A stretch of 64,000 nucleotides of DNA, taken from assembly GCA_038230375.1 (NCBI GenBank), contig JBBRNJ010000010.1:32001-96000 (forward strand). Direction: 5' to 3'. Both the position numbers and the translations under genes were made by a program. The notes below the pieces were generated by a model that worked only from the letters and a program-made list of their open reading frames with translations, ran no database searches and had not been told where the DNA came from. Positions within the stretch are counted from its first letter, which is position 1. Each line of letters opens with the position of its first letter. This document shows, one piece after another, positions 1-4,394 of the stretch. The DNA comes from Polyangiales bacterium. Lineage in GTDB: Bacteria; Myxococcota_A; Polyangia; Polyangiales; Polyangiaceae.

Positions 1-940
1 CCGCGATGCGCCGCGTTCCCGCGACAACGTCCACGTGCGTGAACAGCACGCGACCGTCCACCGCGGCCGACACGTCTCGCAAGACGATCGGCGCGGCGGC
101 CTCTCCGCCCGCATGCAGCGACGCCTGGAGCGAGAGCGGCAGACGCACCAGGAGCGCGCGACGCGTCGACTTTGCGAATGACCGCACGGCGTCAAGGCGC
201 GCTTGCCGCGTGAGCGCGGACTTGCCGTGGGACACCTGTGCGTCGCTACGCTTCTGATTGAGGCGCGCGCGAGAGGTGCATCGCGCGAGCTCGCGTGAGC
301 GCCCAAACTGCTTCTTTCGAGCCTTCCTGCGCGCGAGGTGCAGCGTGTGTTCCTCGCGCACCGCGAGACCGTGGAGATTCCTGAGGTACCGCAGCTCGCC
401 TGACTCTTGCTCGCGGGCTTGCTCACGTTGCAGCTCCGCAAGCGTGCCGGAGAAGTAGCGACAACCCGACTCCCGGATGCAGAAGAAATGCTCCATGTCG
501 CCGAGCAGCCGGCGATCGTGGCTCGCGAGCACGACGCCGCCAGTGAACGACCGCAGCCATGCGCGGAGCCACAGGGCCGCGTCGTCATCCAGATCGCTCG
601 TGGGCTCATCCAGCAAGAGCACGTCCGCGCCTGACTGCCTTGCCTCCATCAAGCGCAACCTCCGGACCTGGCCCGCGCTCATGCCCAGAACGCAATCGAG
701 CACCTGCGGCACCAGGTGCGTCCTTCCTCGCCGCAGCACCCTCTCGTGTGGAGTGCTGCCGGCGAGCACCGACAGCAGCGTGGATTTTCCCACGCCGTTG
801 CGGCCGACCAGCGCGACGTGCTCGCGGCCCAGGGAGAGCCGAAGGCCCTCCACGAGCGTTCGACCGCCATCCGCCTGGATGCGCGCATCCGCCACCACGA
901 TGAGCGGCTCGTCCTGCTTCGCGTGGGTCGTCGCTCTCAT
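1..940 (-). CDS. ABC-F family ATPase, ARE-like (3' end beyond the window)
   Basis: Not in the ORF track because it has no stop in the window. Manual translation from ATG 940: MRATTHAKQDEPLIVV...HVALVGRNGVGKSTLL (Walker A), LVPQ, MSAGQ, LLLDEPTSDLD, LASHDR, then a long basic linker. No TM segment. ATGA overlap with the hflX stop. Confidence 0.85.
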   Translation of the reverse strand, partial: MRATTHAKQDEPLIVVADARIQADGGRTLVEGLRLSLGREHVALVGRNGVGKSTLLSVLAGSTPHERVLRRGRTHLVPQVLDCVLGMSAGQVRRLRLMEARQSGADVLLLDEPTSDLDDDAALWLRAWLRSFTGGVVLASHDRRLLGDMEHFFCIRESGCRYFSGTLAELQREQAREQESGELRYLRNLHGLAVREEHTLHLARRKARKKQFGRSRELARCTSRARLNQKRSDAQVSHGKSALTRQARLDAVRSFAKSTRRALLVRLPLSLQASLHAGGEAAAPIVLRDVSAAVDGRVLFTHVDVVAGTRRIA

Positions 941-2310
941 CGCGTCCGCCCCTGGAGCCGAGCTCTAATCTGGCCCACGGCCTGCGCGGGCCCCTGGAAC
1001 GTGAGCTGCAGTCCGGTCTCCGTTGCATCGCTCTCGGTGACGCGACACCTCGCGTAGATCAACGCCAGGACCTCCGAAGCCTCGTACGGCACGAGCATCG
1101 ACACGGGCTCCTCGCCGTCTCGCGCCGCCGAGATGAGCGCGTTGCTCAGGTCAGCGACCGCGCGTGTGTCATGGCTGGAGAGCGCGCGCCACGGGCTCTC
1201 GGCACAGAGCGATGCGATCTCGCGTTCGTCGATCGCCTCGACGCGATCGCGCTTGTTCCACACATAGAAGCGTGGAACGTGCTCCGCGCCGAGCCTCGCG
1301 AGCACGGCGTGCGTCGTCTCCAGGTGCAGCGCGCGCTCGTGGTCGCTCGCGTCGACGACGATCACGAGCAAAGAAGCCTCCGTGATCTCCTGCAGCGTGG
1401 AGTCGAAGCTCGCGAGCAGCCGCTCCGGCAACCTGCGAATGAAGCCGACGGTGTCGCTCAGCACGACGTCGCCCCCATGTCGGGTAAGGCAGCGGCTGGT
1501 GGTGTCCAGCGTCTCGAAAGGCACGTCCCGTGCGGACAGCTCCGTGGACGCGAGCGCATTCATCAGCGACGTCTTCCCGGCGTTGGTATAGCCGACCAGC
1601 ACGATGCGCTTCGCACTGCCGCGGAGGTGCCGCTGCGTCTCGCCCGAGGTCAGGAGCTTCCGGAGCGCCTTCTGCAGCTCGAACGACCGCGCATCCAGCT
1701 TTCGCGCAAGGAGCTCCGAGGCCGTTTCTCCGGGCCCGCGTGCTCCCGCCATGCCGCCTGCCTGCTGGTCCATGTTGATGCCCACGCCGCGGATGCGCGG
1801 CTTCAGCCACTCGAGCTGCGCGAGCTCCACCTGGATGCGTGCGCGTCGCGTTCGCGCATGGCGGAGGAACACGTTGAGGATGATGCCCTCGCGGTCGCAC
1901 ACGGGCAGCTTCGCGACGTCCTCCAGGTTTCGCGTCTGCGAAGGCGTGAGCTCCGCATCCAGGACGAGCATGTTGCTTCCGCACGCACGTGCGCGCGCTG
2001 CGAGCTCCTCTGCTACGCCCTTCCCGAGCAACGTGCGCGGGTCGGGCTCTGCCATGTGACGGATCTCTGCTCCCACGACGCGGTCGCCCGTGCTCTTCGT
2101 GAGCGCGACGATCTCGTGGAGCTGCGCGACGCGTATTCGCGGATCGCGTTCGCGTCCAACGGACACGACGTAGTCGTCGTTCCCGCCTTCACGCGGCGAT
2201 GCGGGGAGGCCTTTTTCCTGCCACTCCGCGACAAGCTTCTCCCAGCGACCCTCGTCGGCAAGGGGCACCTCTGCGTGCTCCGAAATGGGCTTCGAATCGA
2301 ACCTGAGCAT
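937..2310 (-). CDS. hflX: GTPase HflX (ribosome-splitting factor)
   Basis: GKG, LTPSQTRNLE, QVELAQL, GPGET, G1 GYTNAGKTS, FETLDT, DTVGFI, NKRD; SD AAGGAG at 2317-2322. Confidence 0.95.
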   Translation of the reverse strand: MLRFDSKPISEHAEVPLADEGRWEKLVAEWQEKGLPASPREGGNDDYVVSVGRERDPRIRVAQLHEIVALTKSTGDRVVGAEIRHMAEPDPRTLLGKGVAEELAARARACGSNMLVLDAELTPSQTRNLEDVAKLPVCDREGIILNVFLRHARTRRARIQVELAQLEWLKPRIRGVGINMDQQAGGMAGARGPGETASELLARKLDARSFELQKALRKLLTSGETQRHLRGSAKRIVLVGYTNAGKTSLMNALASTELSARDVPFETLDTTSRCLTRHGGDVVLSDTVGFIRRLPERLLASFDSTLQEITEASLLVIVVDASDHERALHLETTHAVLARLGAEHVPRFYVWNKRDRVEAIDEREIASLCAESPWRALSSHDTRAVADLSNALISAARDGEEPVSMLVPYEASEVLALIYARCRVTESDATETGLQLTFQGPAQAVGQIRARLQGRTR

Positions 2311-2466
2311 GAGTATCTCCTTCGAACGTCAGTGTTGAGCGCGGCCTTTTCCTCCACTCGAGCGGGATCTCTGTCGGCATGCGGGACGTCGTGCGATGTG
2401 CACGGCCAGCGGCCAGCGACAGGACTCGAGGGACTCAGGGGCTCAGACGAACGAAAGATGAAACAT
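2311..2466 (-). promoter_or_regulatory. Putative translational attenuator in the hflX leader
   Basis: Nested complementary segments pair the uORF region with the hflX SD region: ATCT/AGAT, TTCG/CGAA, CGTC/GACG, TGAGC/GCTCA, CTCGAG/CTCGAG, CTGTCG/CGACAG. Confidence 0.7.
2443..2466 (-). CDS. Leader peptide MFHLSFV
   Basis: ATG TTT CAT CTT TCG TTC GTC TGA, 14 nt downstream of the -10 box. Confidence 0.65.
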   Translation of the reverse strand: MFHLSFV

Positions 2467-2480
2467 GGCGATCGACGTGC

Positions 2481-2508
2481 AGCTTAGCTCTGGATCGCGC
2501 TTCGTCAA
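2481..2508 (-). promoter_or_regulatory. sigma70-type promoter of the hflX operon
   Basis: TTGACG-N16-TAAGCT on the minus strand. Confidence 0.7.
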
Positions 2509-4394
2509 GGATGCGTGCGCGCGACCACCCGCTCGATCGCGTCGACGAGCTCGCTGCGCCCGCAGGGCTTCCTGAGCACGCGCGAGCCCAGTCGCTCGAT
2601 GAGCTCCTCGTCCGATTCGCCGCGCGCGCCTCCCGTGATGAGCAGCGTACGGTCTGCCAGCGGCGAGCCCGCGGCGCGCAGGTCAAGGAGAAGCCGCTCG
2701 CCCCCGCCGTCGGGCATGGTCAGGTCGCAGATCACCGCGTCGTAGCGCTCGCGAGCCGCGCGCTCGAGCGCGTCCTTCACCGTGGACGCCGTGTCGACGT
2801 CGCAGTGAGGGCCCAGCTGTCGCGCGTGCATCGAGAGGACCTGTGGATCGTCGTCCACCAGGAGCACGCGTCGTCGCTTCTCCGTGCGTGCAGGCGACGC
2901 ACTTGCCGCCTCCGTCTTGGGCGCCCCCGCGGCGTCGAGCTCGATGGAGAGCTCCGAGCCACGGCCAAGGGTGGACTCCACCCGCATCTCGCCCCTCATC
3001 GCGGTCACGAACGTGGAGGAGACCGCAAGACCAAGCCCGGTGCCGAGCCCCGCTGGCTTCGTGCTGAAGAACGGCTCGAACAGCCGCTCCTTCGTCGAGG
3101 CGCTCATGCCAACGCCGTTGTCCGTAACGGCGATGCGGACCTTGCGTGCGCCGCCTTGCGCGTGCGCCTCCACGCGCACCTCCACACGGCCATCCTTCTG
3201 GCCATCCGGGATGGCCTGGACACCGTTCTGAACGAGGTTTTCGATGACCTGCTCGAGCATCGTGTGTTCGCCGGTGGCGAAGGTGCCATCCGGGCAATCG
3301 ATGTCGATCTTCACGGCCCCGCGCGAGGAGGCCCGCGCGGTCTCGACCGCAGCGCGCACGCACGCGCCGACGTCGATGGTGACCCGCGCGTCCTGCGCCC
3401 GCGTCCGCGAGCCGGCCTGCTGCAGCTGCTTGACGATGCGTGCGACGCGGCGCGCCGCCTCGAGCGAGTCGGTGAGGCAGGCGTGCTCCTCCTCCGTCAG
3501 GCTGCCAACGGGTCGGGCCTCTTGCAGCACGGTCAGGTTGCCGATGACCGCGGAGATCGGGTTGTTGATCTCGTGCGCGACGCCTCCGGCAAGCTGCCCC
3601 AGCGTCGCAAGCCGCTCCGTCTGACGAAGCGTCTCGGTGGCCTTCTCGAGCGCAGCAGTCCGCTCCTTCACCCGCTGCTCCAGATCGAGCGCGAGGCGAT
3701 CCAGCGAGTTCGCCGTGCCGATGAAGCCGCGCGTGAAGTCTGCACCGACACAGAGGATCGCCGCGAAGAAGAACGGCCCCGCAACATAGGGCGGTGACAG
3801 GTAGGCCGCGCTGACGAGCACGTCGTGGACCGCGCCCGCGAACAGAAGGCCCAGCGCGGCCACGTGGTAGAAGGTCACGTCGCCCTTGCGTACGTCCTTG
3901 AGGTAACGGCCGAGCGCCAGGCCCATCACCACCATGAGCACTGCAAATGCGACGTTGCCTGCGGCGGTGGGCTGCACGTCGTAGTACCGAATGGAGCCGA
4001 GCTGTGACGCGCGTTCGACCTCGCCCGGCACGAAGGCAACGCCGGGGATCGCACTTGCAACGCCCGTGATGGTGAGCAAAGAGAGCAGCACGCGATCGAG
4101 CGTGTCGACGGCGGTGTTCTGCAGCAGGCGCGTTCGCAGCAGGATCCACGCGCCGATGTGGAGCGACAGCGACGCCACATCAAGGCCGTTCGCTGCGGAA
4201 CGCCAGAAGCCGGGCACACCAGGGATGGCGGTGTGCAGGTCGAAGAAGAAGTAGCTCACGCCCGAGCCGCCGATCCACGCGATCAGCCGTATGCGTCGCC
4301 AGCGTGGAGCGCGCGACAGAGACCAGGCCAACGCCGCAACGCCAAGCGCCGCGACGCCCCCCGCCACGTCCAGTAGTGCGCCGGCCTGAAGCAT
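2505..4394 (-). CDS. Hybrid sensor histidine kinase (multi-TM sensor, HisKA, HATPase, receiver)
   Basis: About 7 hydrophobic segments; GVAHEINNP, NLVQNG, DNGVG, FFSTK, GTGLGL; receiver LLVDDD...DLTMP...KP. Confidence 0.92.
   Translation of the reverse strand: MLQAGALLDVAGGVAALGVAALAWSLSRAPRWRRIRLIAWIGGSGVSYFFFDLHTAIPGVPGFWRSAANGLDVASLSLHIGAWILLRTRLLQNTAVDTLDRVLLSLLTITGVASAIPGVAFVPGEVERASQLGSIRYYDVQPTAAGNVAFAVLMVVMGLALGRYLKDVRKGDVTFYHVAALGLLFAGAVHDVLVSAAYLSPPYVAGPFFFAAILCVGADFTRGFIGTANSLDRLALDLEQRVKERTAALEKATETLRQTERLATLGQLAGGVAHEINNPISAVIGNLTVLQEARPVGSLTEEEHACLTDSLEAARRVARIVKQLQQAGSRTRAQDARVTIDVGACVRAAVETARASSRGAVKIDIDCPDGTFATGEHTMLEQVIENLVQNGVQAIPDGQKDGRVEVRVEAHAQGGARKVRIAVTDNGVGMSASTKERLFEPFFSTKPAGLGTGLGLAVSSTFVTAMRGEMRVESTLGRGSELSIELDAAGAPKTEAASASPARTEKRRRVLLVDDDPQVLSMHARQLGPHCDVDTASTVKDALERAARERYDAVICDLTMPDGGGERLLLDLRAAGSPLADRTLLITGGARGESDEELIERLGSRVLRKPCGRSELVDAIERVVARTHP

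Follow-up and report, generated by a model that had tools for sequence, protein, structure and literature searches.

The present work concerns a 64,000-nucleotide (nt) stretch of DNA from a Polyangiales bacterium (assembly GCA_038230375.1, contig JBBRNJ010000010.1, positions 32,001 to 96,000), hereafter called the window, and more particularly the leader that precedes a gene of the hflX family on its minus strand. Our analysis revealed that this leader carries a short upstream open reading frame (uORF) encoding the heptapeptide MFHLSFV, that such a uORF is conserved in front of related hflX genes, that its RNA is complementary to the ribosome-binding site (RBS) of hflX and covaries with it, and that hflX forms an operon with a downstream gene encoding an ABC-F protein. 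In this study, the uORF, its conservation, its complementarity and covariation with the RBS and the operon are counted as established. We consider it probable that the leader is a translational attenuator of the ermC/cat kind, which would sense stalled ribosomes by means of an MsrDL-like peptide and would control a ribosome-rescue or ribosome-protection operon. We further infer that the uORF is translated, that ribosomes arrest at its stop codon, that this arrest has a trigger and depends on a drug, and that the products of the operon exert a negative feedback.

An initial annotation of this region had described a promoter-like TTGACG-N16-TAAGCT motif, a seven-codon uORF encoding MFHLSFV and a hairpin sequestering the Shine-Dalgarno (SD) sequence of hflX, and had interpreted the whole as a translational attenuator. 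The motif (2508..2481) and the uORF (2466..2443) are present as described, and the interpretation is supported by the conservation of both the uORF and its lineage-specific pairing. Three points were absent from that annotation: the translational coupling of hflX to an ABC-F gene that follows it, the near-leaderless nature of the uORF and the pairing of the uORF with an RBS-like decoy in part of the family.

The leader uORF and its conservation

An order-level search of 200 other genomes yielded 11 full-length hflX orthologues (55-66% identity), the other matches being paralogues about 40% identical. All short open reading frames (ORFs) starting with ATG were listed, without bias, in the upstream regions. 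The 12 loci, including the one studied here, all possess a uORF of 7-8 codons (eight in one of them) that ends in Phe-x-stop; in two of these loci, it lies beyond the first 330 nt examined. Furthermore, 57 additional loci were fetched from species-representative genomes by means of the N-terminal protein motif S-K-P-I-x-E-H-A-E-V-P-L-A-D-D-G (alignment A1). Since eight of these duplicate the first set, the comparison covers 61 distinct loci. The added loci come mostly from assemblies of Polyangiaceae/Polyangiales, with a few labelled Nannocystaceae, Planctomycetota/Pirellulales, Vulcanimicrobiota or Lentisphaeria.

According to the initial annotation, lack of a conserved uORF in homologues would have spoken against its interpretation. 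A uORF of 6-9 codons with a penultimate Phe, usually followed by Val and then by the stop codon, was found in 60 of the 61 distinct loci, and the sole locus devoid of it offers just 201 nt upstream. Exactly seven codons are present in 50 of these 60 uORFs, three start with GTG, and three end with N, G or R and not with V, I, L, S or A. The M-x4-F-[VILSA]-stop pattern has 45 matches in 32.6 kb of leader zones versus none in 350 kb located elsewhere in the same loci (both strands). Over both strands of the host genome (18 Mb), the peptide pattern has 39 matches, of which the one at 2466 alone is preceded by a promoter-like motif. The Val codon at position 7 is GTC (n = 26), GTT (n = 7), GTA (n = 2) or GTG (n = 2), all three stop codons occur, and residues 2-5 are variable. 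Since the Val codons vary and all stop codons are used, the C-terminal Phe-Val-stop is therefore selected as a peptide and as a length. Position 3 is occupied by Leu or Ile in 24 of the 47 seven-codon uORFs, and by His in the peptide from the window. Overall, this comparison indicates that the uORF is genuine and that its conservation extends to about 60 uncultured myxobacteria and to a few bacteria outside this group.

The loci from assemblies labelled as other phyla are L050 and L051 (Vulcanimicrobiota), L076, L077, L089 and L092 (Planctomycetota/Pirellulales) and L090 (Lentisphaeria). They carry the uORF and hflX, followed by the ABC-F gene where the locus extends that far, and the GC content of their leaders is lower. 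These copies suggest a horizontal transfer of the whole regulated unit, although some bins may be mis-assigned.

The statistics on leaders and pairing that follow were obtained on 57 unique leaders and, where indicated, on a thinned set of 39 leaders below 65% identity. In 27 of the 57 leaders, a TTGnnn-N16-18-TAnnnT motif is located at the same place before the uORF (aligned partly by eye). The distance from the end of its second hexamer to the ATG of the uORF is exactly 9 nt in 20 of these 27 leaders, and 14 nt in the leader from the window. The position of the motif implies a 5′ untranslated region of a few nt. An SD-like 4-mer is found before hflX in 47 of the 57 leaders and before the uORF in eight; the uORF from the window has no SD. 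Among these eight, L012, L015, L075 and L087 carry a GGGAG/GGAGG motif and, in our reading, lack a -10-like hexamer at about 9 nt from the ATG; a motif scan places the hexamer 29 nt away in L012 and calls none in L015, L075 and L087. The uORF would be translated in a leaderless-like way, near the predicted start of the transcript.

Pairing of the uORF with the hflX ribosome-binding site

In the minimum free energy (MFE) fold of the leader, the uORF forms one strand of an outer helix whose other strand contains the RBS of hflX and which encloses an inner hairpin (Table 1). The outer pairing joins CAUG 2467..2464 to CAUG 2311..2308, i.e., both start codons, followed by UC paired with GA. It continues with UCUUUCG 2458..2452 and CGAAGGA 2324..2318 across the SD, CGUC 2449..2446 and GACG 2330..2327, and UGAGC 2445..2441 and GCUCA 2340..2336 across the stop codon of the uORF. 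Among the pairings listed in the initial annotation, TTCG/CGAA, CGTC/GACG and TGAGC/GCTCA were recovered together with the inner stems of the nested hairpin; the ATCT/AGAT register was not, the fold using UCU:GGA and UC:GA instead. The duplex between the uORF and its own RBS reaches -19.5 kcal/mol, compared to -12.1 ± 3.0 for shuffled uORFs (z -2.45). Of 55 windows taken from the leader and the first 150 nt of coding sequence, the RBS region pairs best with the uORF, and the helices between both persist when 15, 75, 150 or 300 nt of coding sequence are appended.

Across the family, uORFs match the RBS of their own leader better than that of other leaders. The 57 leaders give -17.30 for their own RBS windows versus -14.01 ± 0.40 for swapped ones, and none of 10,000 permutations reaches this value. 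In the thinned set of 39 leaders, the matched value is -17.85 versus -14.00 ± 0.50 for permuted ones (z -7.7; 0 of 20,000 permutations). For 15 of these 39 leaders, the three best partners include the uORF of the leader itself, compared to three leaders expected. The signal between codons 2-5 and positions -20..-2, i.e., the SD and the spacer, has a z of -4.3 (1 of 20,000 permutations); codons 6-7 and the stop codon covary weakly (z -1.9), and the control regions in the coding sequence (+10..+60) and in the middle of the leader (-120..-70) do not covary with the uORF (z 0.6 and -0.4). The check for pairing and covariation in homologues that the initial annotation had proposed is thereby positive and localized to the SD and spacer. 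In these sequences, the variable codons 2-5 of the uORF covary with the SD and spacer, showing selection at the RNA level.

Two other ways of looking for this signal were rejected. Column-wise covariation in a fixed register over the 57 leaders gave a weak ridge (0.58 compared to a background of about 0.40), partly due to the trivial CAUG:CAUG pairing; it is of little use because the register of the helix shifts between lineages, and register-free permutation tests were therefore used. Pairing of the Phe-Val codons with a conserved GACGAA near the SD was also considered, and the exact complement was found in 4 of 57 leaders versus 15 of 705 control windows.

A stalled ribosome was mimicked by holding the uORF and 12 nt single-stranded (codon 7 in the P site). 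In silico, such a block of the uORF halves the cost of opening positions -15..+3 of the leader from the window (13.0 to 6.5 kcal/mol). In the family, blocking the uORF lowers the opening cost of the RBS by at least 3 kcal/mol in 28 of the 57 leaders and raises it by that much in one.

The HflX/ABC-F operon and its surroundings

The product of the gene that follows the leader belongs to the HflX GTPase family: it contains the Pfam domains GTP-bdg_N, GTP-bdg_M and MMR_HSR1, and matches the HflX equivalog model TIGR03156 with 308.1 bits for a cut-off of 216.75, confirming the identity given to the gene in the initial annotation. The genome encodes three HflX homologues, the other two being 40% and 37% identical to the one preceded by the leader. 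The loop of this HflX that points to the peptidyl transferase centre (PTC), PRIRGxGxxMDQQxGGxxxARGPGE, has one more residue than that of Escherichia coli HflX and that of L003, one of the two other paralogues of the genome; L002, the second one, was left out of this comparison as it has no match to the search motif. The loop is one residue shorter than that of the Listeria HflXr, with which it has D-M-D-Q-Q in common. According to PMC9638945, the PTC-directed loop of HflXr proteins typically has two more residues than that of housekeeping HflX.

The subfamily also has an N-terminal extension, formed by the first ~55 residues of the protein (window 2146-2310, minus strand), that includes a nearly invariant S-K-P-I-x-E-H-A-E-V-P-L-A-D-D-G-R sequence. 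This extension is missing from the solved HflX proteins that matched, whose alignments start at residue 54-63 of the query.

The stop codon of hflX and the start codon of the ABC-F gene overlap (ATGA), and an ORF with a Walker-A motif overlaps or abuts the stop codon of hflX in 59 of 65 loci. From this arrangement, hflX and the ABC-F gene were counted as a translationally coupled two-gene operon. The best NCBIfam match of the ABC-F protein is NF000355 (ribosomal-protection-like ABC-F), with 215.5 bits, below the cut-off of 380. None of the models of resistance ABC-F proteins reaches its cut-off on this protein, Msr (155 bits) and Vga (145 bits) remaining far below. Full-length alignments were obtained with resistance ABC-F proteins of solved structure (VmlR, a lincosamide-streptogramin A resistance ABC-F, VgaL and an MsrE-type protein), and alignments limited to one ATPase domain with housekeeping ABC-F proteins. 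In sequence, its nearest relatives are the resistance families rather than the housekeeping ones.

In L051, L084, L088 and L092, the hflX frame ends early (241, 95, 426 and 65 amino acids, respectively), which may point to pseudogenes, frameshifts or wrongly assembled sequence in metagenome-assembled genomes. The ORF that comes next in these four loci showed no Walker-A motif; one of them, L084, is short (2014 nt, about 500 nt after the start of hflX).

All the features of the locus lie on the minus strand (Table 1), and a 132-nt spacer separates the uORF from hflX. The host genome is a 9.0-Mb assembly of 179 contigs, and the only public sequencing run listed as containing it is a DNA run of a sediment metagenome, which may be its source. 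The best NCBIfam matches of the kinase encoded upstream are the myxobacterial EspC/EspA kinases, far below the cut-off, and the sequences that precede the uORF at the other loci have no obvious likeness to its gene. Just left of the window, the end of the ABC-F gene is met by a convergent gene encoding a 654-amino-acid Ser/Thr protein kinase with a PknB-like kinase domain (L006, 923-2887, plus strand).

Table 1. Features of the hflX leader and adjacent genes in the window (positions counted from the first nucleotide of the window).
Feature	Position	Strand	Remark
Hybrid histidine kinase/response regulator ORF (upstream gene)	4394..2505	-	Stop codon TGA inside TTGACG
-35-like hexamer TTGACG	2508..2503	-	Overlaps the TGA stop codon of the upstream kinase ORF
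-10-like hexamer TAAGCT	2486..2481	-	16-nt spacer after TTGACG; 14 nt before the ATG of the uORF
Leader uORF, seven codons and TGA: ATG TTT CAT CTT TCG TTC GTC TGA (MFHLSFV)	2466..2443	-	
Outer (anti-SD) helix, 5′ strand: start codon, codons 2-7 and stop codon of the uORF and 2 nt	2441..2467	-	Helices of the MFE fold
Inner nested hairpin: CUCGAGU/GCUCGAG, CUGUC/GACAG and CGUGC/GCACG stems	2342..2440	-	MFE fold
Outer helix, 3′ strand: GCUCA, GACG, CGAAGGA (SD) and CAUG of the hflX start	2308..2340	-	MFE fold
SD of hflX, GAAGGAG	2323..2317	-	6 nt before the ATG
hflX paralogue, 457 amino acids, ATG at 2310	937..2310	-	N-terminal extension of ~55 amino acids specific to the subfamily
ABC-F gene, 481 amino acids	1..940	-	Extends 505 nt past the left edge of the window

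Mechanism, alternatives and relation to known attenuators

In the mechanism that we propose, a promoter located just upstream would produce a transcript whose first feature, after a few nt, is the seven-codon uORF devoid of SD. The RNA of this uORF (start codon, codons 2-7 and stop codon) would recognize, by complementarity, the SD, spacer and start codon of hflX 130 nt downstream. In the completed leader, the uORF would pair with the RBS of hflX, close the nested hairpin and block the translation of hflX and, by coupling, that of the ABC-F gene. A ribosome arrested on the uORF would cover the whole 5′ strand, leaving the RBS of hflX open, so that both proteins would be made. The fixed length of the uORF and its penultimate Phe would be accounted for by an arrest at the stop codon, a site suggested by the fixed distance between Phe and the stop codon and by analogy with MsrDL. 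With one product splitting ribosomes and the other displacing drugs, the operon would clear the stalled ribosome and would thereby exert a negative feedback.

Several observations weigh against this attenuator. The fold of the whole leader (-61.1) differs little from that of shuffled sequences (-59.9 ± 4.25; z -0.28), 71 of 200 shuffles being as stable. A promoter scan calls nothing, the TTGACG/TAAGCT motif matching 8 of 12 positions, below the threshold. An Rfam search of positions 1800..3000, at E-values up to 10, returned only two chance-level matches (E about 6). Since the fold is not unusually stable, no promoter is called and no Rfam family matches, the sequence alone proves nothing. The public sequencing runs listed for this genome include no RNA run. 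As the uORF from the window is devoid of SD and its start codon lies within a helix, its translation would depend on a co-transcriptional, leaderless-like initiation. Furthermore, the search for uORFs in the 57 added loci required a penultimate Phe, and the invariance of this residue is therefore partly due to the construction of the retrieval pattern.

Some results of the folding also weigh on this side. The predicted pairing of the SD changes little upon blocking of the uORF: the paired fraction goes from 0.66 to 0.73 in the leader from the window, where the SD stays mostly paired, and from 0.68 to 0.57 for the family mean. The comparison of folds with and without a blocked uORF that the initial annotation had suggested has a mixed outcome, the opening cost being halved and the paired fraction of the SD not being lowered. 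Blocking the uORF is predicted by these models to leave weaker alternative structures rather than a naked SD. In MFE folds, the native uORF pairs with the RBS window (at least seven pairs) in 42 of the 57 leaders, but shuffled uORFs do so in 26-31 and swapped uORFs in 31-40. These counts are inflated because folded molecules tend to close their ends, and they were dropped as stand-alone evidence after these controls had revealed this strong end effect. When 60 nt of coding sequence are added, the RBS is chosen in 29 of the 57 leaders by the native uORF versus 8-13 by shuffled ones.

The read-out is also heterogeneous, which likewise does not favour a single mechanism for the whole family. In 11 relatives from Polyangiaceae with long leaders (L008, L038, L043, L047, L048, L052, L057, L059, L060, L063 and L065; alignment A2), the uORF pairs not with the true SD but with a conserved RBS-like decoy, GUCUUUGCGAAGG..GCCAC, located about 100 nt downstream. 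Their leaders are about 300-400 nt long, their uORFs are of the MWLHxFV type, and about 200 further structured nt precede hflX. The decoy pairing comprises 15 pairs, and four pairs of the predicted structure show compensatory changes. This subgroup looks like an ermC-style relay or may have another output. In L036, the closest relative in the N-terminal region, the uORF and the RBS are not complementary (z 0.20) and the leader has a U8 tract. Altogether, 9 of the 57 z-scores of the duplexes between the uORF and the RBS are above zero. The sensor is conserved across the family and the read-out is probably not. The leader of one orthologue, L009, has another peculiarity: about 220-160 nt upstream of hflX, it contains four tandem copies of a unit of about 16 nt (CACGAGAGTCGGCACC-like).

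In tnaC, a ribosome arrested at the stop codon masks an entry site of Rho located just downstream. A Rho-dependent attenuation of this type, or an intragenic Rho termination within hflX left untranslated by RBS occlusion, as proposed for toiL-topAI, would give a mainly transcriptional output. In the leader from the window, the stop codon of the uORF is indeed followed by 80 nt rich in C (C 0.41, G 0.29), and C exceeds G by at least 0.08 in 19 of the 57 leaders, the reverse being found in two. Moreover, according to PMC12121999, toiL-topAI joins RBS occlusion to intragenic Rho termination. However, the mean bias is mild (0.354 for C versus 0.308 for G), the region is predicted to be strongly structured, which disfavours the loading of Rho, and the covariation with the SD and spacer is left unexplained unless Rho is joined to the translational attenuator; we regard Rho as an unlikely basis of the control. 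An intrinsic terminator, whose hairpin would be prevented from forming by the stalled ribosome, is the mode of action of the known hflXr (rli80-hflXr) and msrD (msrDL-msrD) leaders, as described in PMC6310831 and PMC10314930. T-runs occur in some leaders of the family (T6 in L008 and L047, T5 in L048 and L061, T8 in L036), but 28 of the 57 have no T-run at all by our count, a terminator scan of the window found no terminator-like site, and the 132-nt leader from the window contains no T-run of at least four. The inner hairpin is not an intrinsic terminator because no U-tract follows it, and attenuation by termination of this kind is quite improbable here.

Alternatively, the leader could be a general translation-stress or constitutive element and not a drug sensor. 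It would then respond to starvation, to a shortage of release factor or tRNA or to the drop-off of peptidyl-tRNA, or would form a cap-like 5′ helix stabilizing a dormant mRNA. This would fit with the lack of a known inducer, with the burial of the 5′ end, including the AUG of the uORF, in a helix between 5′ and 3′ ends, and with the reported action of HflX proteins in heat and other stresses. However, a strict length and a C-terminal Phe-Val-stop typify arrest peptides, starvation sensors use runs of one codon, and the downstream ABC-F protein is closer to resistance than to housekeeping families; such an element seems rather unlikely. A chance ORF accompanied by a chance hairpin in GC-rich intergenic DNA could account for a fold no better than that of shuffled sequences, end effects inflating the pairing between 5′ and 3′ ends. 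It is contradicted by the presence of the uORF in 60 of 61 loci, by the lack of any match in the 350 kb of control sequence and by the covariation tests, and its probability is negligible.

Beyond the attenuator itself, a bolder proposal can be made, which we regard as tentative and somewhat doubtful. M-x4-F-V-stop could be a new cross-phylum family of peptides that arrest termination when they sense a natural product bound to the tunnel or to the PTC. Ribosomes could gain access to the near-leaderless uORF solely during transcription, as both start codons would be buried in one helix between the 5′ and 3′ ends once the leader is complete; this would make the uORF a one-shot co-transcriptional sensor. 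The operon would then be a self-resetting rescue module with two factors, HflX splitting the ribosome stalled by the drug and the coupled ABC-F protein clearing the drug.

The translational attenuator favoured here has several known counterparts. In the cat-86, cmlA and ermC systems, a short uORF precedes the resistance gene, whose SD is sequestered until a ribosome stalls on the uORF and disrupts the pairing. In common with those of cat and cmlA, the uORF studied here itself provides the pairing partner of the SD (two segments and not four). Unlike those of cat-86, cmlA and ermC, it encodes an unrelated seven-codon peptide ending in Phe-Val-stop, lacks an SD, lies a few nt from the predicted start of the transcript and has its start in the same helix as that of hflX. 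The controlled genes, encoding an HflX GTPase and an ABC-F protein, and the hosts, Myxococcota and other Gram-negative environmental phyla, also differ. The likeness between the IFVI stalling sequence of ErmCL and MFHLSFV, to which the initial annotation had pointed, is one that we take to be a resemblance and not a test; MFHLSFV presumably also resembles the resistance pentapeptide MRLFV. The translation attenuation of ermC is mentioned in PMC6310831.

MsrDL from streptococci (MYLIFM-stop) is, like the peptide studied here, a very short hydrophobic leader peptide before an ABC-F gene, with a penultimate Phe followed by a hydrophobic residue and the stop codon. According to PMC10314930, erythromycin blocks termination on MsrDL, the penultimate Phe clashes with the release factor, and Leu or Ile at position 3 is the residue involved in drug recognition in MsrDL and in resistance pentapeptides. 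MsrDL differs in that it has six amino acids, its own SD and an intrinsic terminator, whereas the uORF from the window is one residue longer, without SD and without terminator, its output would be access to the RBS, and position 3 of MFHLSFV is His and not Leu or Ile. The rli80-hflXr (lmo0762) system of Listeria monocytogenes resembles the present one in that its leader-peptide attenuator controls a second HflX paralogue, distinct from the housekeeping one. In Listeria, the leader codes for 14 amino acids with an RLR motif and acts by transcription termination, and HflXr has been proposed to cooperate with the ABC-F protein Lmo0919 (PMC6310831). Unlike the operon described here, hflXr and the ABC-F gene (lmo0919) are separate genes in Listeria, and the loop of HflXr is typically extended by two residues (PMC9638945) compared to one here. 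Lastly, toiL-topAI from E. coli is also a Gram-negative case in which ribosomes stalled on a uORF remodel a structure occluding the RBS (PMC12121999); its downstream genes differ from those described here, being a toxin-antitoxin pair, and Rho termination is its secondary output.

Searches of full-text literature, outside which lie subscription-only papers and supplements, found no description of an hflX-ABC-F operon, of such a leader or of the regulation of HflX in myxobacteria. The logic of the attenuator is that of textbooks; its unusual traits are the near-leaderless uORF, the inclusion of both starts in one helix, the fixed seven-codon peptide ending in Phe-Val-stop and the spread across phyla together with the operon. 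Most known leader-peptide attenuators of ribosome-protection genes come from Firmicutes, Actinobacteria and clinical resistance elements. The probable attenuator described here extends this host range to Myxococcota, where it forms a well-conserved family, and to Planctomycetota, Vulcanimicrobiota and Lentisphaeria, in which copies occur; these are soil and sediment bacteria that share their habitat with antibiotic producers. The uORF provides a compact candidate arrest peptide, of fixed length and ending in Phe-Val-stop, that can be tested in vitro against known and myxobacterial ribosome inhibitors; together with its flanking motif, it could serve to flag inducible ribosome-rescue operons in metagenomes. 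Finally, the presence of HflX and an ABC-F protein in one coupled operon gives genomic support to the idea, raised for Listeria, that these two factors cooperate.

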